From Steroidobacteraceae bacterium (lineage in GTDB: Bacteria > Pseudomonadota > Gammaproteobacteria > Steroidobacterales > Steroidobacteraceae): a DNA stretch of 64,000 nt. The notes below the pieces were generated by a model. That model had not been told where the DNA came from and made no database searches. It saw only the letters and a list, made by a program, of their open reading frames with translations. The stretch lies in contig JBFWZQ010000014.1 in assembly GCA_050185195.1 (NCBI GenBank), positions 3,002 to 67,001 of the forward strand, in the 5' to 3' direction. Of the stretch, positions 30,949-63,851 are shown in pieces; position 1 is the stretch's first letter, and every line of letters starts with the position of its first letter. The position numbers and the translations under genes are program-made.

Positions 30949-35878
<4,930 letters not shown>

Positions 35879-35879
<1 letters not shown>

Positions 35880-36781
35880 CAGAAGTACCCTTCCTGTTTC
35901 TTGCGCTCCATCGAAGCCACCTGGTCGCGGTCGACCGCGCGCCCCTGCCGTTCGGCGCGGCGTGACAGCAGCATCTCGGTCGTCACGTCGGCGATGGAGG
36001 CGGCGCGGCTCTCGAGCGCACCGGAGAGCGGATAGCAGCCGAGCGTGCGAAAACGCACGCTGCGCCGCCGCGGCAGCTCACCCGGCAGCAGGCGCATGCG
36101 TTCGTCGTCGACGAGCAGCAACTGCCCACCGCGCTCCACCACCGGGCGCTCGGCGGCGAAATAGAGCGGCACGAGCGGAATCTCCTCGCGCGCGATGTAT
36201 TGCCAGATGTCGAGCTCGGTCCAGTTCGACAGCGGAAACACCCGCAGGCTCTCGCCGCGCTGCTTGCGCGCGTTGTAGAGCTGCCAGAGCTCCGGCCGCT
36301 GCGCGCGTGGATCCCAGCGGTGCTGCGCCGAGCGCACCGAGAAGACCCGCTCCTTGGCGCGCGAGACTTCCTCGTCACGCCGCGCGCCGCCGAACGCGGC
36401 ATCGAAGCCGTGCCGGTCGAGCGCGGCCTTGAGCGGCTCGGTCAGCATCTGCCGCGTGTATTCCGGCGTCGGCGTATCGAACGGGTTCACGCCGCGCTGC
36501 GCCGCTTCGCGGTTTTCGGCCACGATCAGCCGCAGGCCGTGTTCGCGCACCGTGCGGTCGCGGTGCTCGAGCATCGCGCGAAAGTCCCAGCCGGACGCCA
36601 CGTGCAGCAACGGAAAGGGCGGCGGCGCCGGGTAGAACGCCTTCAGGGCAAGGTGCAGCATCACCGAGCTGTCCTTGCCGATCGAGTAGAGGAGCACGGG
36701 ATTCTCGCACTCCGCGACGACCTCGCGGAAGATGAAGAGGCTTTCGGCCTCGAGCCGGTCGAGGTGCGTCAGGGTCGTCAT
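35879..36781 (-). CDS. cysD: Sulfate adenylyltransferase subunit 2
   Basis: 300-aa ORF. PP-loop [13 protein letters not shown]; C-terminus ...[10 protein letters not shown] typical of CysD. Confidence 0.9.
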
Positions 36782-36788
36782 GGCCTTC

Positions 36789-37562
36789 CTAGAAAGTGCT
36801 GAAGTCGCGGGCGAGCCGCAGCAGGCTCGTGGCGATCACGAGCACACCCACTGCGATCGTGAAGGGCCGCACCGACACGCGCCGCGCGAGCAGGGCCGCG
36901 AACGGCGCCGCGAGCAGCGCCCCGCACAGCAGCCCCAGCGCGATGCCGGAGAGTTTCTCGAACCCGACATGGGAGACGAGCAGTCCGAACACGGTCGCCG
37001 CGACGAAAGTCTCGGCAATCGCGCCGGTGCCGACGACATGCCGCGGATTCGCACCGAGCGCCACGAGATTGCTCGTGACGAGCGGTCCCCAGACGCCCGA
37101 CGTCGCCTCGAGCAGGCCGCCGGCGAAACCGACGCCAACCTGGGCCCGGCCCGACGCGCGGTTCGGCAGCGCATGCAGGGCGCGCCAGATGATGAAAGCG
37201 CCCGCGACGAGCAGGTAGAGGCTGATCGCGATGCCGATCCACTGCGAGAAGCTGCGTGTCAGCAGCGTCACGCCCGTCACGCCGCCGAGGATGCCCGCGA
37301 TCGACAGCACGACCAGCATGCGTGCGTCGACATTGCGCATCCAGACGTGCGAGAGGCCGGAGGCGGTGCCGGTGAAGAGCTTCGCGCCATTGACCGACGC
37401 GCTCGCGATCTCGCGCGGCACGCCGACCGCCGCGAGAGCCGCCGAGCTGATCGCGCCGAAGCCCATGCCGAGCGCGCCATCGAAGACCTGGGCCACGAAA
37501 CCCACGGCCGCAAACGCCCAGGTTTCAGGGCTCGACAGGATCGTGAGTACGGATTGCCACAT
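36789..37562 (-). CDS. TauE/SafE-family (DUF81) anion transporter-like membrane protein
   Basis: ORF 36789..37697 trimmed to [11 protein letters not shown]. Polytopic, with Gly-rich TM segments ([32 protein letters not shown]). Confidence 0.75.
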
Positions 37563-37672
37563 AGGGTCCGGGGAGCATGCCGTGGGGGAGAAGGCCGAAC
37601 GATACTTTTCGATTATGAGGGTATAGCCCTGAAATCGGCGACTCGGCGCGGCGTCGCCCGTAGGCTCGACCC
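37563..37672. promoter_or_regulatory. Divergent control region between tauE-cysD-cysNC and cysJIH-hem-cysG
   Basis: 110-bp spacer between divergent start codons. It contains the only A/T-rich patch nearby (cgatacttttcgattatgagggtatag), including a T-N11-A element (TACTTTTCGATTA) of the loose LysR/CysB-box type. Promoters are inferred, not demonstrated. Confidence 0.4.
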
Positions 37673-39505
37673 ATGTCCGCCGTCCCCGCCTTGCCACTGC
37701 TGCCCGCCGACGCGCAACCCCTGCCGGCGAGTCGCCTGCACCTGCTCACCGAGCTGACCCAGGGCCTCGACGCAGGCGCCCTGCTCTATGTGTCGGGATA
37801 TGCCGCCGGGCTCGCGGCGGCACAGCGCCAGGGCTACACGCCCGCCCACGCACCCGAGCGGATGCAGGACGCGCAGGGGGTGCGCGCCACCGTCCTCTAT
37901 GCCTCGCATACCGGCAACGGCCGCCGCATCGCCGAACGGCTCGTCGCGACACTCGAGACACGCGGCCTCGCCGCACGGGCCATTGCTGCAGGCGAGTACC
38001 CCAGTCGGGACCTCGCACAGGAACGCCTGCTGTATCTCGTCGCGAGCACGCACGGCGACGGAGACCCGCCGGACGGCGCGCGCCCGTTCTTCGACTTCCT
38101 GCTCGGCCGCAAGGCGCCACGCCTCGAGCAGCTGCACTATGCGGTGCTGGCACTCGGGGACTCGAGCTATCCGCAGTTCTGCGAAGCCGGCCGCGTGCTG
38201 GACGAGCGGCTCACTGCACTCGGGGCGACCGCGATCACGGCCCGAATCGACTGCGACCTCGATTACGAGGCCCGGGCGTCCGACTGGTCGGAGGCAGCGA
38301 TCCGGTTCGCGCTCGAGACCCTGAAACCCGTCGGCGATGCGCCCCGCCTCGCCATCGTCTCGCCACTGCGCGCCGCGACACACGCCGCGGCGCCGGCGAC
38401 CGCAACCCGCGACGCGCCGGTCGTGGTCGAAGTGCTGGCCCGCCAGCGCATCACCGGGCGCTCCAGCGATCATCCGGTGATGCACCTCGAGATCGCGGCG
38501 CCCGCGGACCTGCTCGCGTACGAACCGGGCGACGCCATGGGCGTCTGGCCTCGCAACCCGGATTTCCTCGCGGCGCGCATCGCGGAAGTGCTGAAGCTCG
38601 ACCTCGCCGCCACGGTTTCACACGCCGGCGCAGAACGATCGCTCGGCGACTGGCTCACGCAGCATCGGGAAATCACGCGCCTCTCGCGCCCGCTGCTCGA
38701 AGCGCACGCCGCGCGTTCCGGCGCGCCTGCGCTGCAGTCCCTCGTGAACGGGGATCAGCAGGCACGCGCCGCCGTCCTGCGCGACTGGCAGGTGCTCGAC
38801 CTGTTCGAGGCGTACGCGGCCGAATGGTCCGCCGAAGACCTCGTCGGCGCGCTGCGTCCGCTCGCGCCGCGCCTCTATTCGATTGCCTCGAGCCGCCGTG
38901 AAGTCGGCGACGAACTGCACCTCACGGTGGCCGCGGTCGACTATGAACGCGAGGGTGCGCGCCGCGTGGGCGCCGCGTCGTTCTTCCTCGGGTCGGATGC
39001 CCCCACGCTGCGCGCCTATGTCGAGCCGAACACGCATTTTCGCCTGCCGGCGGACCACGACCGCGACCTCATCCTGATCGGCGCGGGCACCGGCGTCGCG
39101 CCCTACCGCGGCTTCCTGCAGCAGCGCGCCGCCGATGGCGCCCGTGGTCGCCACTGGCTGCTCTTCGGGGCGCGGCGCTTCTCGAGCGACTTCCTCTACC
39201 AGGCCGAGTGGCTTGCGGCGCGCAAGCGCGGCCTGTTGCACCGGCTCGACCTCGCGGCCTCGCGCGACCAGGCGGAGAAGGTCTACGTGCAGCATCGCCT
39301 GCGCGAACAGGGTGCGGAACTATGGCGCTGGATCGAGGGCGGTGCGTCGGTCTATGTCTGCGGCGACGCGGCGCGCATGGCGCCCGACGTGCATGCGGCC
39401 CTCCTCGACGTGGCGCAGGTGCACGGCGGGCAAACGGACGATGCCGCGCAGGCCTACCTGAGCGAACTCGTCGCGGCGCGGCGCTACCTGCGGGACGTGT
39501 ACTGA
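37673..39505 (+). CDS. cysJ: Assimilatory sulfite reductase [NADPH] flavoprotein alpha-component
   Basis: Flavodoxin-like [10 protein letters not shown]; FAD motif RLYSIASS; NADPH motif [15 protein letters not shown]; C-terminus YLRDVY. Confidence 0.9.
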
Positions 39506-39506
39506 C

Positions 39507-41180
39507 ATGGCAGACGCCCCCCTGTCTCCCGTGGAACACATCAAGGCGGCGAGCCGGCTGCTGCGCGGCACGCTCGCTGACAGCCTCGCGGATGCGCCCA
39601 CGGGCGCGCTCGCCGAGGACGACACGAACATCCTCAAGTTCCACGGCAGCTACCAGCAGGACGACCGCGACCTGCGCGAAGAGCGCCGCCTGCAGAAGCT
39701 CGAGCCGGCGTACAGCTTCATGATCCGTACGCGCCTGCCGGGCGGCGTGTGCACGCCCTCGCAGTGGCTCGCGCTCGACGCCATCGCGCGCGAGCACGGC
39801 AATGGCACGCTGCGACTCACGACGCGCCAGGCCTTCCAGGTCCATGGCGTCGTGAAGCGCGACCTCAAGGCGACCATGGCCGCGATCAACGCCACGCTGA
39901 TCGACACGATCGCCGCCTGCGGCGACGTGAACCGCAACGTGATCGCGAGCGCCAATCCGGTCGAATCCAGGCTGCACGCCGAGGCCCACGGCTGGGCGTC
40001 GAAGATCTCCGCGCACCTGCTGCCGCACACGCGCGCCTATCACGAGATCTGGCTCGGCGAGGAAAAAATCGCGGGCACGCCCGAGGTCGAGCCCATCTAC
40101 GGCGCGACCTACCTGCCGCGCAAATTCAAGATCGCGCTCGCGGTGCCTCCCGTCAACGACGTGGACGTCTTCGCGCACGACCTCGGCTTCATCGCCATCG
40201 TCGAGGACGGCGCGCAGGGCCCGCGTCTCGCGGGATTCAATGTCGCGGTTGGAGGCGGCCTCGGCGCGACGCACGGGGATGCGGCCACCTACCCGAAGCT
40301 CGCGCAGGTGATCGGCTTCGTCGCGCCCACGGACACGCTCGCGGTCACCGAAGCCGTGGTCACGACGCAGCGCGATTTCGGCGATCGCGCCAACCGCAAG
40401 CACGCGCGCCTCAAGTACACGCTCGAGACCCTGGGCGTGCAGGCCTTCGTCGCCGAAGTCGAGCGGCGCGCGGGGGTCCGTTTCGCGCCAGCACGCCCCT
40501 ATGTGTTCACGACGAACGGCGATCGCTTCGGGTGGACGCAAGGCTTCGATGGCCGCTGGCATCTCAACCTGCGCATTCCATCCGGCCGCATCGCCGACCG
40601 CGACAGCGCGCGCCAGCTCACCGGCCTGCGCGAAATCGCCCGGGTGCACCGCGGGGACTTGCGCCTCACGCCGAACCAGAACCTCATCATCGCGAACGTC
40701 GCCGCCGAAGATCGCGCGACGATCGACGCGCTCGTCGTCGACCACGGCCTCGACCTCTACACGCGCGCCTCGCCGACGACTCTCGACGCGCTCGCCTGCG
40801 TCGCGCTGCCCACCTGCCCGCTCGCGATGGCCGAGGCCGAGCGCTACCTGCCCGACTTCCTCGTGGCCTTCGAAGCGCGCCTCGCGCACCATGGCCTCGC
40901 GCAGGTGCCGGTGCTCGTGCGCATCTCCGGCTGCCCGAACGGCTGCTCACGGCCCTACCTCGCCGAGGTGGCGCTCGTAGGCAAGGCGCCGGGGCGCTAC
41001 AACCTGCACCTCGGCGGCAATGCCACCGGCGAGCGCCTGAATGTGATGTATCGCGAAAACCTGTCGGAGACCGCAATCTTCGAGGCGCTCGACCCGCTGC
41101 TATGGCAGTTCGCGAACGAACGCAAGCCCGACGAACGATTTGGAGACTTCCTGTGGCGCGCGAAGCTGCTGTCCGCGTGA
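39507..41180 (+). CDS. cysI: Assimilatory sulfite reductase hemoprotein beta-component (siroheme/[4Fe-4S])
   Basis: 557-aa ORF. Cluster/siroheme cysteines in [14 protein letters not shown] and [12 protein letters not shown]. Starts 1 nt after the cysJ stop. Confidence 0.9.
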
Positions 41181-41917
41181 CGACCGACCCCGTGGCGGCG
41201 CAAGTGGCGCAGGCGCGCGCCGGTGATGTGCAGGCGCTCGAGGCGTTGAATGCCGCGCTCGCGCCGCTGTCCGCCGCCGCGCGCATCGCGTTTGCCCTCG
41301 CGCGGCTGCCGGGCCGGCACGTACTCTCCTCGAGCTTCGGCGCACAGGCCGCCGTCGCGCTGCATCTCGCGACGCAGGTTTCGCCGGACCTGCCGGTCGT
41401 GCTCGTCGACACCGGCTATCTCTTCCCCGAGACCTATCGCTTCGTCGATGAACTGACGCTGCGCCTGAACCTGAACCTGCACATCGCGCACCCGGCGGTG
41501 TCCGCAGCCTGGATCGAGGCGCGCCACGGCAAGCTCTGGGAGAACGGCGTCGAGGGGCTCGACCAGTACGGCCGGCTCGCCAAGGTCGAGCCAATGCAGC
41601 GCAAGCTCGACGAACTCGGCGCGGGCACCTGGATTTCCGGGCTGCGCCGCGTGCAGTCGGCGAGCCGCGCGGCCGCGCCGTTCCTCGCCTTGCACGGCCA
41701 TCGCTTCAAGCTGCACCCGATCGCCGACTGGACCGATCGCGACGTGGGTCGTTACCTCAAGCAGCACGCGCTGCCGTATCACCCGCTATGGGAGAAGGGC
41801 TACGTGTCGATCGGCGACTGGCATACGACGCGTTCGCTTGCCGAAGCGGGCCACCTCGAAGGCACGCGCTTCTTCGGCCTGAAGCGCGAGTGCGGCCTGC
41901 ACGGGCTCGAGGGCTGA
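41177..41917 (+). CDS. cysH: Phosphoadenylyl-sulfate (PAPS) reductase, thioredoxin-dependent type
   Basis: Last 246 codons of ORF 39749..41917. GTG at 41177 overlaps the cysI stop (GTGA). The C-terminal KRECGLH is the only Cys, with no CC...CxxC Fe-S motif. That indicates the PAPS rather than APS type, consistent with the CysC domain on CysN. Confidence 0.85.
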
Positions 41918-41920
41918 CGC

Positions 41921-43462
41921 ATGCCGACGTCCTTGCACGGGCCCCGCACCGTCACCATCGGCGCGCGCGCGAGTGCGCTGGCGCGGGTGCAGGCGCGGCT
42001 CGTCGGCGCCGCCCTTGCCGCGCAGGACCCGCGGATTGCCATTCGCTATGCCTTCGCGGACAGCGCTGGCGATCGCGAGCCGGGGGCCTCGCTGCCTGCG
42101 CTCCTGCGCGCGGGCGGCTTCACGAGTGAACTGTCAGAGGCGCTTTCCAGCTCGCACATCGACCTCGCCGTGCATTCCTGGAAGGACCTGCCGTTCGTGG
42201 AGTCGGCCACCACGCACGTCGCCGCGACCCTCGCGCGCGCCGATCCGCGTGACCTGCTGCTGGTGCGCCGCGACCGGCTCGCGCAGGGCCCCCTGCGCGC
42301 GCTGCGAGTACTGACCTGCTCGGCGCGGCGCGCTTTCAACCTGCGCGAGTTCCTCCCGTGGGCCCTGCCGGGTGGCGTGGAGCAGGTCCACTTTCATCCC
42401 GTGCGGGGCGATGTCCTGCGCCGCCTGCACCAACTGCTGACGGGAGACGCAGACGCCCTCGTCGTGGCCAAGGCGGCCATCGATCGGCTGATGGGCGACG
42501 GTGAGGCGGCTGCCGGCGCGCGTGCACAGGTGCGCACCGCACTCGAAGCCTGTCGTGTCATGGTGCTGCCGCTCACCGCGAACCCTGCGGCGCCCGCGCA
42601 AGGCGCGCTCGCCATCGAAGTGCGGCGCGATCGCAAGGACCTCGTCGAGGCCCTTGCCGCGATCAACCATGCGCCGACCTTTGCGCGGGTGACCGAGGAA
42701 CGCGCGCAGCTCGAGGCCACGCGTGACGAAGACCATCCGCTCGGCATCTCGATTGTGCCGCTCGACGGCGGCCCCGTATCGAGCGCAGCGGAAGCCCTGT
42801 TCCGGCGCGGCGCCTTGCAGGGCGTGCGCATCGACACCGCACATCTTCGCAACCGGGAGTCGCCGCTGCCCCGACCCGCACATCGCGAGGCGGTGTGGTC
42901 AGGAGCCGAATTGGAGCGCTTTGCCTTGCGTCGGCAGGCTCTCCCTGTCGACACCACGGCGTTTCTGGCGCCCGGCACGGGTCTGCTGGTCGCACGCGCG
43001 GACGCCCTGCCCGATGCCTCGCAACATCCGCACGAACAGGTGATCTGGACCGCCGGCCTCGACACCTGGCGCCGGCTCGCCGCGCGCGGCCTGTGGGTGA
43101 GCGGCAGCGACGAGAGCCTCGGCGAAACCGGAGCGCTCACCGCGCGGCACCTCTTTCCGCACGTCGATCGGTGGGTGAAGCTGACGCACGCGGCAGGCCA
43201 CGACACGCCGCACGCCACACGCGTTGCGACCTACCGGCTCGAACGCGTCGCGCCGCTCGCCGACATCCGCCCTCACACGCACTTCTTCTGGCGCAGCGGC
43301 TCGCAATTCCTCGAATACTTTCGCGCCAACGCCCGCCTGCGCGATGCCTGGCACGGCTGCGGCCCCGGCAACACCCTCGCGATCATCCGCTCGGTCATCG
43401 GGCCCGAACGCGTACGGCCGTTCCTTTCCGCCGGGCAGTTCCGCGCCGAGATGGGAGCCTGA
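41921..43462 (+). CDS. Fusion protein: HemC-like (hydroxymethylbilane synthase-like) N-terminal part + HemD-like (uroporphyrinogen-III synthase-like) C-terminal part
   Basis: N-terminal strings TIGARASALARVQA, IDLAVHSWKDLP, ADPRD, CSARR, VRGDV, AQGALAIEVR and VTEERA align by eye with E. coli HemC landmarks. The C-terminal ~200 aa (…FFWRSGSQFLEYF…GCGPGNTLAIIRSVIG) resemble the weakly conserved HemD pattern. The HemD call is tentative. Confidence 0.6.
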   Translation: MPTSLHGPRTVTIGARASALARVQARLVGAALAAQDPRIAIRYAFADSAGDREPGASLPALLRAGGFTSELSEALSSSHIDLAVHSWKDLPFVESATTHVAATLARADPRDLLLVRRDRLAQGPLRALRVLTCSARRAFNLREFLPWALPGGVEQVHFHPVRGDVLRRLHQLLTGDADALVVAKAAIDRLMGDGEAAAGARAQVRTALEACRVMVLPLTANPAAPAQGALAIEVRRDRKDLVEALAAINHAPTFARVTEERAQLEATRDEDHPLGISIVPLDGGPVSSAAEALFRRGALQGVRIDTAHLRNRESPLPRPAHREAVWSGAELERFALRRQALPVDTTAFLAPGTGLLVARADALPDASQHPHEQVIWTAGLDTWRRLAARGLWVSGSDESLGETGALTARHLFPHVDRWVKLTHAAGHDTPHATRVATYRLERVAPLADIRPHTHFFWRSGSQFLEYFRANARLRDAWHGCGPGNTLAIIRSVIGPERVRPFLSAGQFRAEMGA

Positions 43463-43466
43463 GGCA

Positions 43467-44480
43467 ATGCTGGACCGGGTCGCACCCATTGCGTCGCTGC
43501 GCGACACTGTCGCGCCACCCCGCCGCCTGCAGCGCCTGCGTCGCACGGCAGCGCTGCGCGACCTCGTCGCCGAAACTTCTTTCACGCACAGCCAGTTGAT
43601 CCAGCCCCTCTTCATCGTCGAGGACGACGCCGACGCGGGCCCGATCGCAGGCCTGCCCGGCAATGAGCGCCTGTCGCGCAACAGTGCGCTGGCGCAACTC
43701 GATGCCGATCTCGACGCGGGCGTGCGCCAGTTCCTCCTCTTTCCAGTGCCCGCTCGCAAGCACGAGCGCCACTTCGACCCCCACTTCATCTGCGAGACCC
43801 TCGCCACCCTGAAGCGTCGAACCGGCCGGGATGCCAGCCTGTGGCTCGACACCTGCCTGTGCAGCTACACCGCCGACGGACACTGCTGCCTGCACGATGC
43901 GCACGGCGAACAGGACCTGCCCGCGACCCTCGATGCGCTCGCTGAACTCGCGCTCGCCTATGCCCATGCCGGCGCCGATGGCATTGCGCCGAGCGACATG
44001 AACGACGGTCGCGTCGCGGCGCTGCGCCTCGCGCTCGATGCCGCCGGCCACGACCTCGTGCCCATCATGAGCTACAGCGCAAAGTTCGCGAGCCAGCTCT
44101 ACGGTCCCTTCCGCGGCGCCGCCCATTCGGCGCCCACGCACGGCGACCGGCGCAGCTACCAGATCGACGTGCGCTCCCGTCGCGACGCGATTGCCAGTTC
44201 GCAGCGCTGCGCCGCCGAGGGCGCCGATCTCCTGATGGTGAAACCCGGCATGAGCTCGCTCGATCTCATCCGCCCGATCGCGCAGGCCACGGGACTCGCG
44301 GTGGGCGCCTACCAGGTGAGCGGCGAATACGCCGCGCTCGCCCTGCTCGCGCGCGAAGGTTTCCTGGACTTCGATGCGGCGCTACTCGAGAGCTGGTTCG
44401 CACTGCGCCGGGGTGGCGCGGCGTTCGTCATCACCTACGGCGCGCGGCTCGGCCGCACGCTCGGCCTCGCGGCGAGGTAG
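43467..44480 (+). CDS. hemB: Porphobilinogen synthase (5-aminolevulinate dehydratase), Zn-cysteine type
   Basis: Last 337 codons of ORF 43224..44480. Zn site DTCLCSYTADGHCC. Active-site lysines in SYSAKFAS and LMVKPG. Confidence 0.9.
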   Translation: MLDRVAPIASLRDTVAPPRRLQRLRRTAALRDLVAETSFTHSQLIQPLFIVEDDADAGPIAGLPGNERLSRNSALAQLDADLDAGVRQFLLFPVPARKHERHFDPHFICETLATLKRRTGRDASLWLDTCLCSYTADGHCCLHDAHGEQDLPATLDALAELALAYAHAGADGIAPSDMNDGRVAALRLALDAAGHDLVPIMSYSAKFASQLYGPFRGAAHSAPTHGDRRSYQIDVRSRRDAIASSQRCAAEGADLLMVKPGMSSLDLIRPIAQATGLAVGAYQVSGEYAALALLAREGFLDFDAALLESWFALRRGGAAFVITYGARLGRTLGLAAR

Positions 44481-44485
44481 CGCCC

Positions 44486-45694
44486 GTGTTCGACTACGAA
44501 GGGTTCTTCGAAAGCGCCAAAGCAAGGCTCAAGCGTGAGCACCACTACCGCGTGTTCCGCGAGTTGCGCCGGGCGCCGGGGCGCTTCCCACAGGCCGAAT
44601 GGCGCGCCGCCGACGGCGGGTGGCGACCCGTCACCGTCTGGTGCAGCAACGACTACCTCGGCATGAGCCAGCATCCGGCGGTGCTTCATGCCGCGCTGCA
44701 GGCGCTCGACCGCTACGGGGCGGGCGCAGGAGGCACCCGCAACATCTCCGGCACCATCGACCTGCTCGTCGCACTCGAGCGCGAGCTCGCCGGCTGGCAC
44801 GCCAAGGATGCGGCCCTGTTGTTCTCGTCGGGCTACGTCGCCAACGACACGACGCTTGCCACGCTCGCGCGCGCGCTGCCGGACGGTGTCGTATTCTCCG
44901 ACGCCGCGAACCACGCCTCCATGATCCAGGGCATCCGCGCGAGCCGGCAGCGGTGCAGCGTGTTTCGCCACAACGACGCGGCGCATCTCGACGCACTGCT
45001 CGCCGCGCACGACCCGGCCGCACCGAAGCTCGTCGCGTTCGAATCGCTCTACTCCATGGACGGCGACATCGCGCCACTTGTCGACCTGCTGGCCGTCGCA
45101 AAACACCACGGCGCCCTCACCTACGTCGATGAAACGCATGCGGTCGGCGTGCACGGGCCGCAAGGGGGCGGGTTGCTCGAAGCGCACGGCCTCCTCGACG
45201 CCGTCGACATCGTGCAGGGCGGGCTCGGCAAGGGCGTGGGCGTCGTGGGCGGCTTCATCACCGGCGCCGCCCCGATCATCGACTACGTGCGCAGCCACGC
45301 GCCGGGCTTCATCTTCACGACCGCGCTGCCGCCCCACGTCGCGGCCGCTGCGCTCGCTTCGGTTCGTCACCTCAAGGCGAGCAATGCCGAACGCGCCGCG
45401 CTTGAAGCGCGCGTGGCGAGCGTGCGCGCGGCGCTCACCGCGGCGGGCGTGCCGATTGCGCCGACCCGCAGCCAGATCCTGCCGCTGATCGTCGGCGACG
45501 CCGCGGCCTGCCACGCACTCGCAGACGACCTCCTCGAGGGGCACGGCATCTATCTGCAGGCCATCGTCCATCCCACCGTGCCCCGCGACGGCGCCCGCCT
45601 GCGCATCACACCTGGCCCGCTGCACGCCGACGCCGACCAGGCGCGGCTCGTTGCGGCGCTCGCGGACGCGTACGCGCGGCAACGCGCGGCCTGA
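44486..45694 (+). CDS. hemA: 5-aminolevulinate synthase (C4/Shemin pathway, alpha-oxoamine synthase family)
   Basis: GTG start. Long runs match remembered alphaproteobacterial ALAS: VWCSNDYLGMSQHPAVL, GAGAGGTRNISGT, FSSGYVANDTTL, NHASMIQGIRAS, VAFESLYSMDGD, YVDETHAVGVHGP, GGLGKGVGVVGGFI (PLP Lys), VRSHAPGFIFTTALPP, PTVPRDGARLRITPGPLH. Confidence 0.85.
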   Translation: MFDYEGFFESAKARLKREHHYRVFRELRRAPGRFPQAEWRAADGGWRPVTVWCSNDYLGMSQHPAVLHAALQALDRYGAGAGGTRNISGTIDLLVALERELAGWHAKDAALLFSSGYVANDTTLATLARALPDGVVFSDAANHASMIQGIRASRQRCSVFRHNDAAHLDALLAAHDPAAPKLVAFESLYSMDGDIAPLVDLLAVAKHHGALTYVDETHAVGVHGPQGGGLLEAHGLLDAVDIVQGGLGKGVGVVGGFITGAAPIIDYVRSHAPGFIFTTALPPHVAAAALASVRHLKASNAERAALEARVASVRAALTAAGVPIAPTRSQILPLIVGDAAACHALADDLLEGHGIYLQAIVHPTVPRDGARLRITPGPLHADADQARLVAALADAYARQRAA

Positions 45695-45701
45695 GCCACG
45701 C

Positions 45702-47132
45702 ATGCGCTACTTCCCGGTCTTCCTCGACCTGCAGGACCGCGACGTCCTCGTCGTCGGCGGCGGCACGGTGGCCCTGCGCAAGATCGAGACGCTGCGCTCG
45801 GCCGGTGCGCGCGTCACGGTCATTGCGGCGACCATTCACGAAGACCTGCAGCGCATCGCGGCGCAGGGCGCAATCCGGCTGGTCCAGCGCCGCTTCGAGG
45901 CCGCCGATATCGCTGGCCCCCACCTCCCGCGGCCGTGGCTGATCGTGGCGGCAACAGACGAACCCGCGGTCAACGCGACGACGGCGCGCGCCGCGCAAGC
46001 GGCCGGCATCGTGTGCAACGTCGTCGACGACCGCGAACTGTCGAGCGCGCTGATGCCCGCCATCATCGACCGCTCACCCGTGCAGATCGCTGTCTCGACA
46101 GGTGGCGCCTCGCCCGTGCTCGCGCGTCTCATCCGCGAACGCCTCGAGACACTCCTCGACGAGTCGCTCGGCCCGCTCGCGCGGTTCGCCGAACGCTGGC
46201 GCGCGAGCGCACGCAAGGTGCTCGCGAGTGCGGGTGCGCGGCGCCACTTCTTTTCGTGGCTTCTGACCGGGCCGGCCGCGAACGCCATCCAAGCCCGGCG
46301 CCAGGCTGATGCAGATCGAATCGCCACGCGCGAACTGGCGCGGCGCCAGCGTCTCACCGATAGCGCCGCGGCCGATCAGGGCGCCACCGGCCACGTGACG
46401 CTCGTCGGCGCAGGCCCCGGTGACCCCGGGCTGCTCACGCTCAAGGGACTGCGCGCACTGCAGGAAGCCGACGTCGTCATCCACGACCGCCTCGCGTCCG
46501 CCGAAGTGCTCGACCTCGCACGCCGCGACGCGGAGCGTATCGACGTCGGCAAACGCCCGGGTGCAGGCACGACACAGGAGGTCATCAACGCACGGATCGT
46601 CGAACATGCGCACCGCGGGCAGCGCGTGGTGCGCCTGAAGGGCGGCGACCCCTTCATCTTCGGCCGCGGCGGCGAAGAGATCGACACCCTGCGCGCGGCC
46701 GGCATTCCCTTCGATGTGGTGCCGGGCATCACCGCCGCCATCGCCGCGGGCGCCGCGGCCGCGATCCCGCTGACCGACCGGCGACATGTACACGCCGTGC
46801 GCCTGATCACGGGCAACGATCCCGCGGTCCTCGACGCGTTCGACTTCTCCGACGTCGCCGCCGGCCGCGAGACACTGGCGGTCTACATGGGCGTCGCGCA
46901 ACTGCCGGCGTTGCGCGCGCGCCTGCTGCGTGCGGGCGTTGCGCCGGATCTACCCGTCGCGCTGGTTGGGAATGCGAGCGGCGCGGGGCAGCGGGTCGTT
47001 GCGGCTACGGTGGAAAAGCTCGCATCCGCTGCCCGTTCACACGACGTTACGTCGCCTGCAATCTTGCTGGTGGGGACCGTTACGGCATCGGCTCGCGGTG
47101 GATCGGAGACCCACGTCTGCGTCGCAGTGTGA
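45702..47132 (+). CDS. cysG: Siroheme synthase (precorrin-2 dehydrogenase/sirohydrochlorin ferrochelatase + uroporphyrinogen-III C-methyltransferase)
   Basis: ORF 45651..47132 trimmed to MRYFPVFLDL. N-terminal NAD motif VVGGGTVALRKI; SUMT motifs LVGAGPGDPGLLTLKG and RLKGGDPFIFGRGGEE. Confidence 0.9.
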   Translation: MRYFPVFLDLQDRDVLVVGGGTVALRKIETLRSAGARVTVIAATIHEDLQRIAAQGAIRLVQRRFEAADIAGPHLPRPWLIVAATDEPAVNATTARAAQAAGIVCNVVDDRELSSALMPAIIDRSPVQIAVSTGGASPVLARLIRERLETLLDESLGPLARFAERWRASARKVLASAGARRHFFSWLLTGPAANAIQARRQADADRIATRELARRQRLTDSAAADQGATGHVTLVGAGPGDPGLLTLKGLRALQEADVVIHDRLASAEVLDLARRDAERIDVGKRPGAGTTQEVINARIVEHAHRGQRVVRLKGGDPFIFGRGGEEIDTLRAAGIPFDVVPGITAAIAAGAAAAIPLTDRRHVHAVRLITGNDPAVLDAFDFSDVAAGRETLAVYMGVAQLPALRARLLRAGVAPDLPVALVGNASGAGQRVVAATVEKLASAARSHDVTSPAILLVGTVTASARGGSETHVCVAV

Positions 47133-47666: not shown

Positions 47667-48974
47667 CTAAGCGCGGACGATCGATCGAACGTCGACTACA
47701 TACATCTGCCTTTGGTGCTCGTGCACCGAGTCGATGCACACTTCATCGCCAGTCCGGCTCCAGCGGGGGTGCAGGTCGCAGCGGTTCACCTTGCCGAGCC
47801 TGGGGTCGGTGTAGAAACGACCGATGTCGTGTCGCCGCGCGGTGAGCGTGTCGAACAGGATCAGCAGGCGATGGTCGGTCTCGTCCGGATACGTATCCGA
47901 GAGAATCCAGCGCTTGTCAGGCGAATAGGTCATGTGCCCGTTCTCCGTGAGGCACTCGCGGCCGATGACCTCGACCTTGTCGCTGCGGTCGGTGTACAGG
48001 TGGTAGTGCGCTTCGTGCGCATGCGGCCCCCAGATCAACACGTGGTTGTCGTCACGCCAGGTGGGATGCGAGAGCTGATAAATCGACTTCTCGTAGTCGA
48101 AGATGCCCGCCTCCGTTCCAGCCGCAGCCGGGAGCGGCGCGAGGGGATGATCGCCGCATTCGAGCAGGGTGAGCTCGCTCCCGTCTGGGTTGACCGTGAA
48201 CAGGCGATGCAGCCAGCGCGTCTCATCGTCGAAGCACTCCGTCCAGCGATGCAGGAAGAGAAAGCGCTTCGAGCCCGGCGCAATTTCCAGATGCGTAACC
48301 CAGTGAAACGCGCGCTCCATCGAGGCGACCGGCTGAAACTCCCGCAGCTTGCGCAGGTCGACGATCAGTTCATGCACACCGGTCGCGATATCCATTCGCC
48401 GGATGCCTTCGTTCGACGGCGCCGGGTCGAGTGGAGCGTGAGCCGTATGTGGGAAATAGCCGATGGTCGGGTGAGCGAGCTGGAGCCGGTCGTAGTCGAT
48501 GCATAGCGCATATTCGCCGTTCGGCGCGACGACATAGACGGGCAGCGGCAGCGTTCGGCGCTCGCCGCTTTCCAGATCGGCCAACGTCGAGCCGAAATCG
48601 GGATAGGCGCCACCGGCAGCGAACGAACGGGTATTGAAGATCACGCTGGACCGCGTGTTCTCCAGCCATTGCAGCTGGCAGCCCATCTGAAAATTCCACG
48701 TCGTGGTTTCACCGAACGCCCGAAATGCCCCGCCCCGATCCAGGTCGAACACACCCACTTCGGCCGCGAAATGGATACCGAGCTGCCCCTGCATCGCATC
48801 GACCCGATGGGCAAGAAGCCGCCGCCCATCTGCGCTCCAGACCGGCTTGTTGTAATAGCCGAAGAAATGATGGGCGCTACCGTCGCCCAGTCGCACGACG
48901 GGACACTCCATCCACTGCGCCGGGGCGGCGACGGTGGCTGCGCTGTTCTGCTCCTGCATCTTGAACCTCATCAT
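47667..48974 (-). CDS. Cytoplasmic beta-propeller protein, TolB-like / PL22 oligogalacturonate-lyase-like
   Basis: 435-aa ORF with no signal peptide. HHFFGYYNKPVWSADGRRLL near the N-terminus and CDLHPRWSRTGDEVCIDSVHEHQRQMYVVDV at the C-terminus resemble the blade pattern remembered from PL22/TolB-type propellers. Confidence 0.5.
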   Translation of the reverse strand: MMRFKMQEQNSAATVAAPAQWMECPVVRLGDGSAHHFFGYYNKPVWSADGRRLLAHRVDAMQGQLGIHFAAEVGVFDLDRGGAFRAFGETTTWNFQMGCQLQWLENTRSSVIFNTRSFAAGGAYPDFGSTLADLESGERRTLPLPVYVVAPNGEYALCIDYDRLQLAHPTIGYFPHTAHAPLDPAPSNEGIRRMDIATGVHELIVDLRKLREFQPVASMERAFHWVTHLEIAPGSKRFLFLHRWTECFDDETRWLHRLFTVNPDGSELTLLECGDHPLAPLPAAAGTEAGIFDYEKSIYQLSHPTWRDDNHVLIWGPHAHEAHYHLYTDRSDKVEVIGRECLTENGHMTYSPDKRWILSDTYPDETDHRLLILFDTLTARRHDIGRFYTDPRLGKVNRCDLHPRWSRTGDEVCIDSVHEHQRQMYVVDVRSIVRA

Positions 48975-50467
48975 TTCCTGTTCGCGTCGATCGCGGCTGC
49001 GGCCATCGCCTTCGCCCGTGCGAGCACCGTATCGGTGGTGCCGAACCAGTCCGTCGGCACGGGCTCCATCGGAACATCCGGGGCAATGCCCACGGTGTCA
49101 TAGAGCTGCCCCGTTTTCTGGAAGGACGCCATGGTCGAGAGGTTGACCACGAGCTTGCTGTGCGGGAGCAGGAATTCCCGCCCGTGCCCGCTGCGCCCCA
49201 TGGTCGGCGTGCCGACCAGCGTTACATCGCGCCAATCCTTGAATGCCGACACGAAGATGTCGCCGGCACTGCCGATCCCCCAGTCGATCAGCACATAGAC
49301 GGGCCGGGAGTAGAAGCGCTTGAGCGGGTCCGCCCGCTGCGTCATGAAATACCAATCGGTGAACTTGCCCGCGGGGGGCGACCACACGGGCTGAAACGAG
49401 ACCGCAAACTGCCGGTAGGCCGCCGCTTCATCGGCGGGATTCTTCGGATTCTGCGCATAGAGCAGGCGTTTGTCCGGGCTGTCGAACACCGCGAGCGGAT
49501 CGAACGTCTTGTCGCCCTGCGGAATACGCACCTTGGCGACATTGAAGACATAGGGTGGAGAGCCCGGCGGCATGAAATAGGGGAACAGCGCATTCAGGAT
49601 TTCGCGCTTCCCGCCGCCCGATTGCCGGGCATCGATAATCAGCGCCTCGGTATTGCGAAACTCGCGCATCAGCCGGTCGATACTGTCCCGCAGCTCATCG
49701 CCCTCCTTGCCCCGGTGTGCGGCGACCCTGAGATAGCCGATGTTGCCGTCCAGGAGCCGGCTGTGCGCAGGCAGATTGAAGGGTTTCGTTGTCTCGTCAA
49801 GTGCTGTCGCAACGGGAAGCTTCAGGTGGATCGCACGTGCACCATCGGCCGACACCATCTCCAGCGCAATGTCCGGCCGGACCGGCAGCCCCATTTCGCC
49901 ACGCATGTAATTGATGTGGCGCATCAGCCGCACGCCGCGCGCAAAGCGTGCTGCCGCCGAGCTGAGTGGCCCCTGGCCAATATCCCCCGCAACCCGGAAC
50001 CACTCCTCGATGAGCACGCCATCGATCGATCGGACGAATGGAAAGTCGGCGTTCACGAATCCCGCGGGCGCGCCCGAGTAGAGAAAGTAGCGCTTGTCCG
50101 CTTTGCCGAACTGAAATGACGTGTACCCCGGCGGCACCCGTGCCGCCCAGTCGATCACTTGCGCATGATCGTCACCGAAAAGCCGGACGAGCTTGTTGAT
50201 TTGCGTCGATAGCCCGTTGACGGAGACCTTGTCGGGGAGCTTCGCCTGCATGCGCTCGATCGACTGCGCGAACGGAAACGTGACCGACCAGATGTACGAG
50301 CTGTTGCCACCGATGCACTCCTTCAGGACTTCCAGATCCGCCGCAGCCTCGGTCCGGCTGATGTACGTATCGTTGTCCTTTCGACCCAGATCGTTGCGCC
50401 CCAGATCCGCGTACACCACTGGCACGCCGCACAACGCCACGAGAGCCGGCCACATCAACGAGGTCAT
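48971..50467 (-). CDS. S41-family peptidase (tail-specific-protease-like), secreted
   Basis: ORF 48971..50566 trimmed to MTSLMWPALVALCGVPVVYA. Motifs LIIDARQSGGG and IDWGIGSAGDIFVSAFK (nucleophile Ser region). Confidence 0.7.
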   Translation of the reverse strand: MTSLMWPALVALCGVPVVYADLGRNDLGRKDNDTYISRTEAAADLEVLKECIGGNSSYIWSVTFPFAQSIERMQAKLPDKVSVNGLSTQINKLVRLFGDDHAQVIDWAARVPPGYTSFQFGKADKRYFLYSGAPAGFVNADFPFVRSIDGVLIEEWFRVAGDIGQGPLSSAAARFARGVRLMRHINYMRGEMGLPVRPDIALEMVSADGARAIHLKLPVATALDETTKPFNLPAHSRLLDGNIGYLRVAAHRGKEGDELRDSIDRLMREFRNTEALIIDARQSGGGKREILNALFPYFMPPGSPPYVFNVAKVRIPQGDKTFDPLAVFDSPDKRLLYAQNPKNPADEAAAYRQFAVSFQPVWSPPAGKFTDWYFMTQRADPLKRFYSRPVYVLIDWGIGSAGDIFVSAFKDWRDVTLVGTPTMGRSGHGREFLLPHSKLVVNLSTMASFQKTGQLYDTVGIAPDVPMEPVPTDWFGTTDTVLARAKAMAAAAIDANRK

Positions 50468-50481
50468 GGGTTGTCCTTCAC

Positions 50482-51216
50482 TCAATGGCTGATGATCTTC
50501 GAAAGAAAACGTTGCGCACGCTCCGAGCATGCGCTTGCGGGGCCGAAGAACCGCTCGCTCGCGCAATCATCGATGATCCGTCCGGCGTCCATGAAGATGA
50601 CCCGGTCCGAAACCTTGCGCGCGAATCCCATCTCGTGCGTCACGCATATCATCGTCATGCCGTCGCGGGCCAACTCGGTCATGACATCGAGCACTTCATT
50701 GACCATTTCCGGGTCCAGCGAGGACGTGGGCTCATCGAACAGCATATACGCAGGATCCATGCACAAGGCGCGTGCGATTGCCACGCGCTGCTGCTGGCCA
50801 CCGGAAAGCTGCCCGGGATGCTTCGTTGCGAACTTCCCCAGGCCGACCCGCTCCAGGTATCGCATGGCGCGCGCGTGCGCCTCCTCAGGCTTGCGCTTGA
50901 GCACCTTGACTTGCGCGAAGACCAGGTTGCGCAGAACCGTCATGTGCGGGAACAACTCAAAGTGCTGAAAGACCATGCCGACGCGCGCACGGATCGCCGG
51001 CAGCAATTTCGCCGGCCCCGGCATGGCCAGGTCGTCGATACGGATTCTCCCCTGCTGCATCGGTTCGAGCCCGTTGATGCATTTGATGAGTGTCGATTTC
51101 CCGGAGCCCGAAGGTCCGCAAACGACGACGACTTCGCCAGTCGCCACGTGCGTGGTGCAGTCGTAGAGAACCTGCGTAGATCCATACCACTTGGAGACGT
51201 TCTCTATGCTGATCAT
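50482..51216 (-). CDS. Polar amino acid ABC transporter ATP-binding protein (GltL/GlnQ-like)
   Basis: Walker A GPSGSGKST; signature LSGGQQQRVAIARAL; Walker B MLFDEPTSSLD. Confidence 0.9.
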   Translation of the reverse strand: MISIENVSKWYGSTQVLYDCTTHVATGEVVVVCGPSGSGKSTLIKCINGLEPMQQGRIRIDDLAMPGPAKLLPAIRARVGMVFQHFELFPHMTVLRNLVFAQVKVLKRKPEEAHARAMRYLERVGLGKFATKHPGQLSGGQQQRVAIARALCMDPAYMLFDEPTSSLDPEMVNEVLDVMTELARDGMTMICVTHEMGFARKVSDRVIFMDAGRIIDDCASERFFGPASACSERAQRFLSKIISH

Positions 51217-52609: not shown

Positions 52610-52610
52610 T

Positions 52611-53540: not shown

Positions 53541-53575
53541 CGCCTGCAATCGTACGCCAAGTCCGCGCAAAGACG

Positions 53576-56410: not shown

Positions 56411-56485
56411 ATCCAGCCCCCTCACTTGATCTCTGGTTGCTCGTGCGTGTATCCCGGATGCGCGATCCGCGGACGTGATGGCGAA

Positions 56486-59203: not shown

Positions 59204-59283
59204 ATTATTAGCGCAATCTGCTGCCTTTGGAGATACTAGCCCTGATAATTACGCCTGCATTCAAGTAAACGATTCCATATTGA
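59204..59283. promoter_or_regulatory. A/T-rich divergent control region between the M14/TBDR operon and the LacI-family gene
   Basis: One of the most A/T-rich stretches seen (attattagcgcaatctgctgcctttggagatactagccctgataattacgcctgcattcaagtaaacgattccatattga), lying between divergent start codons. Weak CG-centred half-palindrome GTAAACGATTCC at 59265-59276. Confidence 0.4.
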
Positions 59284-61643: not shown

Positions 61644-61666
61644 TCGCGATGACTGGAGGATCCCAC

Positions 61667-62930: not shown

Positions 62931-62956
62931 GCACGGCATCAACCACCGAGTACACC

Positions 62957-63832: not shown

Positions 63833-63851
63833 GCACGGTGGAGAAGCAGGG

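Follow-up and report, generated by a model that had tools for sequence, protein, structure and literature searches.

The stretch of DNA analysed here (64,000 nucleotides, called the window below) belongs to a Steroidobacteraceae MAG, i.e. to an uncultured gammaproteobacterium of soil/water, in line with the gamma/beta-proteobacterial look that an earlier note on this DNA had seen in neighbouring genes. Seven genes, cysJ, cysI, cysH, P4, hemB, ALAS and cysG, follow each other on the + strand between positions 37673 and 47132, P4 being the 513-aa HemC/HemD fusion encoded by the hemC/D-like gene of the cys operon. The successive junctions measure +1, -4, +3, +4, +5 and +7 nt. The boundaries and the tight same-strand packing (-4 to +7 nt) reported in that note were reproduced by the open reading frames and by independent gene calls on two public contigs with an identical ALAS, except that cysH was called 15 nt shorter there. 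A terminator scan detected no terminator-like site at the gene junctions; on both strands it returned 4 matches vs. approx. 5.0 expected by chance, and the two on the + strand were weak and lay within cysJ and within cysG. The GC content is uniform (0.70-0.715) from cysJ to cysG; downstream of 48 kb it falls from approx. 0.70 to 0.61-0.65. We infer that the genes from cysJ to cysG are co-transcribed.

The sulfite reductase flavoprotein CysJ (37673..39505, + strand; TIGR01931, 675 bits vs. a cutoff of 668) contains the Flavodoxin, FAD and NAD domains. It is followed by the siroheme-dependent sulfite reductase haemoprotein CysI (39507..41180, +; TIGR02041, 837 bits, cutoff 757), the client enzyme for the siroheme cofactor, and by CysH (41177..41917, +; NF002537, 275 bits, cutoff 154), which shares its first 4 nt with the end of cysI. 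CysH has a single Cys and is therefore of the PAPS reductase type. On the - strand a divergent arm begins with the gene of a TauE/SafE-family anion permease (36789..37562; Pfam PF01925 on the identical gene of L002, the window's own contig), which adjoins cysJ conservedly in the class a and class c loci described below. It continues with cysD, sulfate adenylyltransferase subunit 2 (35879..36781, -; NF009214, 483 bits, cutoff 413), and cysNC, the bifunctional sulfate adenylyltransferase subunit 1/APS kinase (34047..35879, -; NF004035, 935 bits, cutoff 715), so that this arm and the cysJ operon share one sulfate-assimilation locus. The 110 bp intergenic region between tauE and cysJ contains a conserved AT-rich core (37600..37642, CGATACTTTTCGATTATGAGGGTATAGCCCTGAAATCGGCGAC), nearly invariant in six class a genomes while its flanks vary. 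The core holds ATA-N9-TAT, i.e. a LysR-type T-N11-A box, upstream of cysJ, and judged by its sequence it could serve both arms as a promoter and as a CysB-like operator. A consensus scan gave no sigma-70 promoter, and no regulator gene was identified within the 64-kb window. The operon probably answers to a CysB-like LysR regulator.

The hemB product (43467..44480, +; NF006762, 328 bits, cutoff 297) is a porphobilinogen synthase of the Zn-type (DTCLCSYTADGHCC), in which both Schiff-base lysines are kept in the alignment to E. coli HemB (1b4e). The next gene (44486..45694, +; GTG start) encodes the 5-aminolevulinate synthase (ALAS) of the Shemin route (TIGR01821, 541 bits, cutoff 338-339). In the PDB it matches ALAS structures best (7x98, 444 bits; 2bwn, 410 bits), and its PLP lysine aligns with theirs, while the AONS, KBL and SPT structures score at most 215 bits. 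An identity as BioF, Kbl, SPT or CqsA was rejected, each model staying below its own cutoff. The enzyme is closest to ordinary alphaproteobacterial ALAS, at 58-60% identity, and this group is also the sister of the monophyletic ALAS of the cys-linked clade. The family score, the PDB matches and the tree all agree with the earlier reading of a true ALAS of alphaproteobacterial type, and not a Kbl/BioF protein. The last gene of the operon, cysG (45702..47132, +; NF007922, 534 bits, cutoff 400), encodes a trifunctional siroheme synthase carrying all four domains (NAD_binding_7, Sirohm_synth_M, CysG_dimeriser and TP_methylase). The names proposed previously for CysJ, CysI, CysH, HemB, ALAS and CysG are thus backed by family models.

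Residues 1-317 of P4 (41921..42871, +; PF01379, 1.6e-41) form a hydroxymethylbilane synthase (HMBS, HemC)-like three-domain module, the AlphaFold model of which (pLDDT 89.9) matches 1pda and 1ah5 with E values of about 1e-21 over approx. 306 columns. Among the Pfam families P4 matches the HemC N-terminal domain only, no HEM4 match was found in it, and its score with the HemC equivalog model (144) is below the cutoff of 164. Residues 318-513 (42872..43462, +) form a module resembling uroporphyrinogen-III synthase (HemD): each of the top 8 PDB matches of its domain model (pLDDT 87) is a HemD, 4es6 and 3re1 with E 2.9e-5 and TMq 0.59. At the sequence level this module gave no match, the HemD part being shown only by the predicted fold. 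P4 is a three-domain HMBS fold joined to a uroporphyrinogen-III synthase fold.

All solved HMBS structures share the dipyrromethane-binding cysteine (C242 in E. coli, C261 in human; PMC7959689). In alignments of P4 to HMBS structures an acidic residue sits opposite the cysteine, and the acidic loop R268-D269-E270-D271 (42722..42733, +; translation ATRDEDHPLG) stands in place of the GGGC cofactor-attachment motif. This replacement (GDED or RDED, the latter in the window) was found in 34/34 cys-linked P4 loci and in all 120 database homologues, whereas the cysteine is kept in 44/44 non-cys-linked relatives. It is also present in 144 of the 150 best 50%-identity representatives, the six exceptions being three members of the Cys-less clade, two C-terminal fragments and one protein with a shifted Cys. 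C211 was rejected as a replacement: it aligns with E. coli R182, lies in a beta-strand and is present in the Cys-bearing relatives too. None of the other cysteines of P4 is a plausible substitute. Residues R16, Q24, K88, D89, R137, R162, R168 and Q227 are invariant in 78/78 members of the P4 family, R136 and R189 in 77 of them. In the cys-linked clade all ten of these substrate and catalytic residues are invariant vs. 19% of the N-terminal columns, which argues that its HemC-like active site is under selection. The changes fixed in this clade next to the active site are N to D164, G to D269 and C to D/E271; V/L to G66, adjoining F67, is fixed as well. A conserved Asn of the substrate site (human N169; PMC7959689) is replaced by Asp in the clade.

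Since P4 lacks the dipyrromethane-binding cysteine, the HMBS step should fail by the textbook mechanism. The earlier note had claimed that the operon encodes every step from glycine and succinyl-CoA to siroheme; this stands as regards the identities of ALAS, HemB and CysG but is not shown for the HMBS step, so that a "complete pathway" depends on a non-canonical or altered reaction there. In the reading favoured below, P4 would still convert porphobilinogen to uroporphyrinogen III despite the missing cysteine.

The operon is neither a chance arrangement nor an assembly artefact, because it recurs in 35 other genome loci of Steroidobacterales-type gammaproteobacterial MAGs (36 with the window's own contig). 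The module occurs in three gene orders, all among sulfate-assimilation genes: class a, cysJIH-P4-hemB-ALAS-cysG (5 further genomes and one partial contig); class b, cysD-cysNC-cysJIH-P4-hemB-cysG, without ALAS (approx. 18 loci); and class c, cysJIH-cysG-P4-hemB-ALAS (11 loci). In every variant hemB is directly downstream of P4. In a complete chromosome (OZ257256.1) a LysR regulator gene diverges from cysG-P4-hemB-ALAS, which has a sulfate ABC transporter and cysJ as neighbours, with cysIH not adjacent; the link to sulfate assimilation suggested before is thus kept over three operon layouts and even here, with cysIH elsewhere. All sequences are metagenome-assembled and the operon is known from no cultured representative. 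Well-studied taxa are without it, every genome locus with a P4 identity of at least 47% is a MAG, and no description of a cys-linked ALAS/hem operon was found in the literature searched, as the earlier note had supposed.

Siroheme-synthase genes are co-transcribed with a siroheme-dependent enzyme in the nirBDC-cysG operon of E. coli and Salmonella, and in the Bacillus cysH operon with sumT-sirB-sirC. As in the window, late siroheme steps share an operon there with a siroheme-using reductase or sulfate-assimilation genes, and therefore cofactor supply tracks demand. Those operons begin at uroporphyrinogen III, whereas that of the window adds ALA synthesis, porphobilinogen synthase and the HemC/HemD steps, i.e. 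the whole route from primary metabolites. The fusion itself is not peculiar to the cys operon but belongs to a large family, a housekeeping enzyme elsewhere; in the haem clusters of SAR86, alphaproteobacteria and Acidobacteriota its members take the place of hemC/hemD. Cys-bearing relatives are found in ALAS<>P4-hemB-hemE-hemH-hemF in SAR86 and in GluTR-like-P4-hemB-hemL in Acidobacteriota. This housekeeping family, with at least 145 clusters at 50% identity, has members in SAR86, OCS116/Rhodobiaceae alphaproteobacteria, Acidobacteriota and Bdellovibrionales. It is sister to the P4 clade of the window and resembles it in length, domain order, invariant active-site residues and having hemB always next. 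However, it keeps GGGC(H) and lies in haem clusters (hemE/hemH/hemF, or hemL and GluTR), while the window's clade has GDED/RDED and lies in cys operons with cysG. The Leptospira HemC/HemD fusion (Guegan et al. 2003, as cited in PMC8698207) likewise joins an HMBS module and then a uroporphyrinogen-III synthase module in one polypeptide; the likeness is one of architecture, and P4 differs in lacking the cofactor cysteine and in its short HemD part (approx. 196 aa), recognisable by fold only. ALAS is likewise known outside the alphaproteobacteria, as the C5N-unit ALAS of Streptomyces (PMC4525017) and the phage vAlaS (PMC11480375). The window enzyme shares with these and with alphaproteobacterial HemA (R. 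capsulatus 2bwn) the PLP-dependent condensation of glycine and succinyl-CoA. Unlike them it belongs to a gammaproteobacterium, its gene lies within a sulfate-assimilation operon, and it would work for siroheme, not for haem, bacteriochlorophyll, secondary metabolites or viral takeover.

We favour, with some reserve, the reading of a cys operon with a private siroheme supply line for CysI, P4 acting as HemC-HemD. The genes cysJ-cysI-cysH-P4-hemB-ALAS-cysG would form one sulfate-assimilation transcription unit, divergent from tauE-cysD-cysNC. ALAS would start the line by the Shemin route, bypassing the glutamyl-tRNA reductase of the usual gammaproteobacterial C5 route (the distribution of the two routes to ALA is textbook knowledge; PMC11480375). 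HemB would then supply porphobilinogen, the HemC-HemD fusion would turn it into uroporphyrinogen III, and CysG would make siroheme from the latter.

The most serious competitor, to which we assign a minor though real share, is that the HemC-like module of P4 is no longer an HMBS but a non-catalytic or re-purposed pyrrole-binding domain, e.g. capturing the hydroxymethylbilane of a housekeeping HemC and passing it to the fused HemD module. The strict loss of the cysteine in the cys-linked loci and the database homologues and the score below the HemC equivalog cutoff speak for it, as do D164, D269 and D/E271, which put carboxylates at the cofactor position and could mimic cofactor side chains. 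However, hemB directly downstream in all variants is sensible only if the next enzyme uses porphobilinogen, and the invariance of the catalytic D89 and the Arg/Lys/Gln ligands in a clade only 48-55% identical is unexpected for a dead site. Moreover, a second, canonical HemC would be needed, and none was seen. It is rather improbable that the operon is the sole tetrapyrrole trunk of the organism, its ALAS, HemB and HemCD having displaced the C5 route and separate hemB/C/D. SAR86 and some alphaproteobacteria do use homologous ALAS/P4/hemB as an evident housekeeping set, with hemE, hemH and hemF, and no GluTR, HemL or canonical HemC or HemD was found within the 64-kb window or the fetched Steroidobacterales flanks. 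Yet class b, which lies nested in the P4 tree between clades that carry ALAS, has lost ALAS while keeping hemB-P4-cysG. These close relatives must therefore have another source of ALA, which argues indirectly that the module is extra rather than sole. The later haem genes (hemE, hemH, hemF/N) are absent beside the module, unlike in SAR86; the module always lies in sulfate-assimilation operons or by a LysR regulator and sulfate transporter; and an aerobe would have a Cys-less enzyme as its only HMBS. That the adjacency has no functional meaning, through chimeric MAG assembly or a recent mobile hem cassette transcribed separately, is very unlikely on the present data: the metagenomic origin of all sequences and the GC drop downstream of 48 kb could suggest it, but the linkage is shared by independent assemblies of different studies and a closed chromosome, the GC is uniform over the operon, the junctions are 1-7 nt or overlapping, and an identity of 47-88% between the orthologues points to vertical retention over a long time.

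The supply line for CysI would most likely be additional to the housekeeping pathway, which would have its own separate trunk. Its module would be a mosaic, P4-hemB coming from the widespread HemCD-fusion/hemB pair and ALAS from an alphaproteobacterial-type lineage, gained once in an ancestor of uncultured Steroidobacterales. The operon would yield sulfite reductase and PAPS reductase plus a private siroheme supply for CysI. Were P4 re-purposed, the operon would boost porphobilinogen supply and uroporphyrinogen III cyclisation and be no self-contained pathway; were the operon the sole trunk, all haem synthesis would be tied to sulfur status.

The seven genes cysJ, cysI, cysH, P4, hemB, ALAS and cysG (37673-47132, + strand) had been proposed in the earlier note to form one operon, and all seven open reading frames were recovered where it had placed them, with intergenic distances of +1, -4, +3, +4, +5 and +7 nt. 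These boundaries agree with the gene calls of two public contigs encoding an identical 5-aminolevulinate synthase (ALAS), except for the start of cysH (15 nt downstream). Curated models supported six of the seven proposed gene names at the equivalog level. The name "hemC/D-like" of the fourth product, a 513-aa protein called P4 here, was not supported in this way, since its score against the HemC equivalog model TIGR00212 was below the cutoff (144 bits against 164). CysJ, CysI and CysH scored 675, 837 and 275 bits against equivalog cutoffs of 668, 757 and 154, respectively, and, being adjacent on the same strand, they make up an assimilatory NADPH-sulfite reductase operon. CysH contains one cysteine only, which fits a PAPS reductase and is in line with the fused CysN/APS-kinase gene upstream. 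In a terminator scan no terminator-like site was found at any operon junction; the scan gave four matches on both strands against a chance expectation of about 5.0, and the two weak ones on the + strand lie inside cysJ and inside cysG. Rfam gave no match anywhere in the window. Gene calling based on GC3 was dropped, because it was too noisy at 70% GC.

Some neighbouring genes had been described as gamma/beta-proteobacterial-looking, and the window proteins are recorded from a Steroidobacteraceae MAG (GCA_050249095.1). A gene for a permease of the TauE family, cysD and cysNC run divergently from cysJ, with a CzcCBA-type efflux system further upstream. Directly downstream of cysG a 435-aa open reading frame is found (47667-48974, - strand) which was not matched by any Pfam or NCBIfam model; in L001, an overlapping ENA contig, the identical gene is likewise without annotation. 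The G+C content is 0.70-0.715 all along cysJ to cysG and 0.61-0.65 past 48 kb. The low-GC stretch of the window (48000-64000), downstream of the operon, carries genes for an S41-like peptidase and a Glu/Asp-type ABC transporter, and on L001 a TonB-dependent receptor is also present in it. Since L001 is an independent contig and spans the junction, the latter is not an assembly chimera, and the stretch may be an acquired island. The Cys+Met content is 0.8-2.0% in six of the seven operon proteins and 3.3% in HemB, with its Zn-site cysteines; the low values may reflect either sulfur sparing or a plain effect of the high G+C.

The assignment of the sixth gene to ALAS proved correct, as the protein reached 541 bits against the TIGR01821 cutoff of 339. 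A Kbl or BioF identity was ruled out by the corresponding models (BioF 342 bits, cutoff 426; Kbl 291 bits, cutoff 460) together with the PDB scores, and the CqsA-type model gave 196 bits at a cutoff of 428. Among the PDB entries the ALAS structures scored 337-444 bits, while AONS, KBL, SPT and CqsA did not exceed 215; the best solved relatives were 7x98 (444 bits), the R. capsulatus enzyme 2bwn (410) and human ALAS2 (396). The PLP-binding lysine is present, the segment GGLGKGVGVVGG being aligned to GTLAKAFGVVGG of the ALAS structure 7x98. The enzyme is predicted to make 5-aminolevulinate (ALA) from glycine and succinyl-CoA. In a large protein collection the top ranks were taken by proteins of Steroidobacteraceae and other gammaproteobacterial MAGs (61-100% identity), followed by ordinary alphaproteobacterial ALAS at 58-60% (Azospirillaceae, Hyphomonas, Pseudaminobacter, Sphingomonas). 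The MAG proteins are already annotated automatically as ALAS. In a neighbour-joining tree the Steroidobacterales ALAS and that of an unclassified MAG (L039) form one clade, which is sister to ordinary alphaproteobacterial ALAS and distant from the enzymes of OCS116, Rhodobiaceae and SAR86. According to the textbook rule, Alphaproteobacteria use ALAS and the remaining bacteria the C5 route (PMC11480375).

HemB scored 328 bits against a cutoff of 297 (NF006762), and both Schiff-base lysines (in MSYSAKF and LMVKPG) as well as the Zn-type motif DTCLCSYTADGHCC can be aligned to the E. coli enzyme. With 218 bits against the HemB of E. coli and 177 against that of P. aeruginosa it is closer to the former, and it shares 58-62% identity with the HemB linked to P4 in Acidobacteriota. 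The P4-hemB pair and ALAS therefore have unlike affinities, which makes the operon a mosaic. CysG (534 bits, cutoff 400, NF007922) has its four Pfam domains in order, the N-terminal dehydrogenase/chelatase being followed by the C-terminal SUMT, which is the full trifunctional architecture.

A scan for P4 with one genome per species yielded 80 loci, which were sorted into classes by tblastn with the window proteins. The exact gene order of the window (class a) recurs in five further Steroidobacteraceae genomes and one partial contig. About 18 soil MAG loci (class b) have the order cysD-cysNC-cysJ-cysI-cysH-P4-hemB-cysG without ALAS, and eleven loci (class c) the order cysJ-cysI-cysH-cysG-P4-hemB-ALAS. 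The earlier note had suggested a survey for ALAS genes linked to cysI, and these were found in classes a and c. In L029 (OZ257256.1), a closed Steroidobacteraceae chromosome, cysG-P4-hemB-ALAS diverges from a gene of the LysR family and has a sulfate ABC transporter and a cysJ-like gene as neighbours. Class d comprises Acidobacteriota loci and one Bdellovibrionales locus, in which P4, in most cases hemB, and then hemL follow each other; in at least some of the Acidobacteriota loci a short GluTR-like gene lies just 5' of P4, with hemE nearby. Class e is made up of OCS116, Rhodobiaceae and MED-G09 alphaproteobacteria and SAR86, mostly with ALAS divergent from P4-hemB, and in the SAR86 locus L075 hemE-hemH-hemF come after P4-hemB. 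From these contexts P4+hemB can be recognized as the conserved core. In classes d and e the pair is plainly the housekeeping HemC/HemD part of a haem cluster, and it is joined to cysG within sulfate assimilation in Steroidobacterales-type gammaproteobacteria only. The fusion family has many members: when 1.84 billion cluster representatives were searched exhaustively, 325 were obtained at E<=1e-30, and almost all of the best 150 of these are about 500 aa long.

Some further features of the relatives were observed. In five SAR86 loci (L073, L075, L078, L079 and L081) ALAS is divergent from the HemCD fusion and hemB, and L075 (8648-15365), with the three hem genes that follow, is a compact haem cluster of the Shemin type outside the Alphaproteobacteria. 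The SAR86 ALAS groups with that of OCS116/Rhodobiaceae, apart from the Steroidobacterales ALAS. The same HemC-HemD fusion of about 500 aa is present in the Acidobacteriota loci L040-L072 and L080 (Pyrinomonadaceae, Blastocatellia), where L058 (9102-13988) has a cluster of the short GluTR-like gene, P4, hemB and hemL. The 300-aa GluTR-like protein encoded upstream of the Acidobacteriota P4 matched TIGR01035 weakly (33 bits) and may be a glutamyl-tRNA reductase that is truncated or has diverged.

The gap between tauE and cysJ is 110 bp long, and its AT-rich core (37600-37642), nearly invariant across six related genomes, holds the sequence ATA-N9-TAT, a LysR-type T-N11-A box. From this conserved core with its box we infer a CysB-like control of the operon, which may be induced in a CysB-dependent way under sulfur limitation; a LysR gene is also present beside the module in L029. 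A sigma-70 promoter scan gave no match. The LysR-family gene of L029 (7418-8392, - strand) stands head-to-head with cysG-P4-hemB-ALAS, and its product is a good candidate regulator of the module. Beside this LysR gene a phosphate-selective-type porin and a sulfate ABC transporter are encoded.

At the sequence level P4 matched PF01379 alone (residues 11-241). The C-terminal domain of hydroxymethylbilane synthase (HMBS, HemC), PF03900, was not detected in P4 even at E<=1, and the HemD model PF02602/HEM4 did not match any of seven P4 family members at E<=1. Alignment of the P4 C-terminus with E. coli HemD by hhalign had a probability of 0.2, and a PDB profile search with the full P4 alignment returned HMBS matches only. 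HemD sequences are poorly conserved. An AlphaFold model of P4 built from 27 homologues (pLDDT 89.9, pTM 0.91) superposed in Foldseek with residues 1 to about 315 on all three HMBS domains of 1pda, 1ah5 and 7ccy (E about 1e-21; about 306 columns aligned; TM, by target, 0.75-0.79). Since HMBS dominated the search with the whole model, residues 318-513 were modelled apart (pLDDT 87). The eight best PDB matches of this two-lobed model were all HemD (4es6, 3re1, 1wcx, 3p9z and 3d8t among them), the best being 4es6 and 3re1 with E 2.9e-5, a match probability of 1.00 and TMq 0.59. By the fold of both modelled halves P4 is thus a HemC-HemD fusion. The hemD position in the haem clusters of SAR86 and Acidobacteriota is taken by its Cys-bearing relatives, and by homology to these the window P4 is a putative HemD-position protein as well. 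The HemC-HemD fusion of Leptospira is a precedent for the architecture (Guegan 2003, as cited in PMC8698207).

The cysteine which carries the dipyrromethane cofactor (C242 in E. coli, C261 in human) is kept in every solved HMBS (PMC7959689). The loop that follows helix 1 of domain 3 has the sequence GGGCH(Q)K in 44 of 44 members of classes d and e; in the full-length P4 proteins linked to cys genes or cysG an acidic loop (GDEDHP or GDDE-P) replaces the cofactor motif in 34 of 34. The window P4 has RDED in place of GGGC (42722-42733), and GGGC was found in none of its 120 database homologues of at least 49% identity. Among the best 150 representatives at 50% identity, GGC is present in this region in 144; of the six without it, three belong to the Cys-less clade, two are fragments from the C-terminus and one has its Cys in a shifted position. 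When the P4 tree was rooted on E. coli HemC, the Cys-less proteins fell into a single clade, sister to all others, which implies a single loss of the cysteine. Sulfur sparing is an unlikely explanation of this loss; HemB, encoded in the operon too, still has a Zn site rich in Cys. No other cysteine of P4 could be recognized as the cofactor anchor. C211, the only invariant Cys of the clade, aligns with E. coli R182 (human R201) on a beta-strand outside the cleft; it also occurs in the Cys-bearing Acidobacteriota proteins, though not in the members from SAR86 and alphaproteobacteria, and owing to this position and distribution it is not a convincing substitute. The remaining cysteines are sporadic.

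The rest of the active site is conserved. R16, Q24, K88, D89, R136, R137, R162, R168, R189 and Q227 are invariant in the 34 loci of the Cys-less clade, and each is kept in at least 77 of 78 family members, R136 and R189 differing in one sequence each; the residues of the window P4 correspond to E. coli R11, Q19, K83, D84, R131, R132, R149, R155, R176 and Q198, of which the Asp is catalytic and the Arg, Lys and Gln residues bind pyrrole carboxylates. Within the Cys-less clade the invariant columns make up only 19% of the N-terminal part, so the full conservation of these ten residues speaks against an active site in decay. Few differences are fixed between the clades, and these are clustered round the cleft: V/L to G66, beside the Phe matching E. 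coli F62; N to D164, at the position of E. coli N151 and human N169; G to D269; and C to D/E271. Human N169 forms a hydrogen bond to a substrate acetate (PMC7959689).

A sulfur-regulated operon of this kind would supply sulfite reductase together with a dedicated cofactor line of ALAS, HemB, the HemCD fusion and CysG, in which ALAS would give ALA without the glutamyl-tRNA reductase (C5) route. The complete glycine-to-siroheme route put forward in the earlier note is supported for ALAS, HemB and CysG, all above their equivalog cutoffs, and is in doubt for P4, which has no cofactor cysteine; the P4 step is the weak link. It can be argued that P4 consumes porphobilinogen, because hemB always adjoins it and its active site is invariant. 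However, without the cysteine the known HMBS mechanism cannot apply. The acidic loop may offer a non-covalent or ester-type anchor, in which case the aminomethyl group of a primer porphobilinogen would be held electrostatically or through a labile ester. That the cys-linked P4 itself converts porphobilinogen to uroporphyrinogen III without covalent dipyrromethane, D269-E270-D271 and D164 replacing the thioether anchor and the finished tetrapyrrole passing directly as azafulvene precursor to HemD, is a tentative proposal, which we regard as possible but on balance doubtful. Alternatively, the HemC-like part of P4 may be a binding module serving the HemD part.

On whether the operon is an extra pathway the evidence is indirect. 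By tblastn with E. coli queries over the window and 82 loci, GluTR, HemL and canonical HemC/HemD were found neither in the window nor in the Steroidobacterales flanks. The sole match in the window, a class-III aminotransferase (10327-11277, + strand) 29% identical to E. coli HemL, probably belongs to the spu-like region as its putrescine/beta-alanine-type aminotransferase and is not glutamate-1-semialdehyde aminomutase. In the P4 tree classes a and b are sister groups, class b lying inside the ALAS-bearing lineages, and the ALAS tree mirrors the split of classes a and c; on these trees ALAS was probably ancestral to the module and lost in class b. Since class b retains hemB, P4 and cysG without ALAS, another source of ALA must exist there, for which the ordinary gammaproteobacterial C5 route is the simplest candidate, and this route was probably already present in the ancestor. 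Later haem genes are absent from the Steroidobacterales-type operons, unlike in SAR86. We consider it likely that the host has a separate housekeeping tetrapyrrole trunk. That the operon is the sole trunk pathway of the organism, as the empty flanks might suggest, is improbable.

Coupling of a siroheme synthase to the operon of a siroheme enzyme is known from nirBDC-cysG and from cysH-sumT-sirBC of Bacillus. While such operons carry the siroheme synthase, that of the window starts as early as glycine and succinyl-CoA. Fusions of HemC with HemD are already known, as is ALAS outside the Alphaproteobacteria. The operon organisation had been thought undescribed, and we too found no description of it in the literature searched; no work on Steroidobacter or Steroidobacteraceae with hem genes was found in the searches made. 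As far as these searches show, the extension of a siroheme operon back to ALA synthesis, its occurrence in a gammaproteobacterial lineage and the conserved Cys-less HMBS homologue at its centre are new.

If our reading holds, the operon is a clean natural case of a whole cofactor pathway wired to one client enzyme, and it could explain how siroheme supply is separated from haem-regulated ALA synthesis. The Shemin enzyme would then be stably established in Gammaproteobacteria, for siroheme in Steroidobacterales and in a haem cluster in SAR86, and the rule that ALAS marks Alphaproteobacteria would be blurred. The Cys-less HMBS homologue is under strong purifying selection and is placed where porphobilinogen must be consumed. 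On the same reading, it would be either a new pyrrole-handling pseudoenzyme or a sign that tetrapyrrole assembly is possible without the dipyrromethane cofactor; if P4 is cofactor-independent, it would represent a second mechanism for a step common to all tetrapyrrole biosynthesis.
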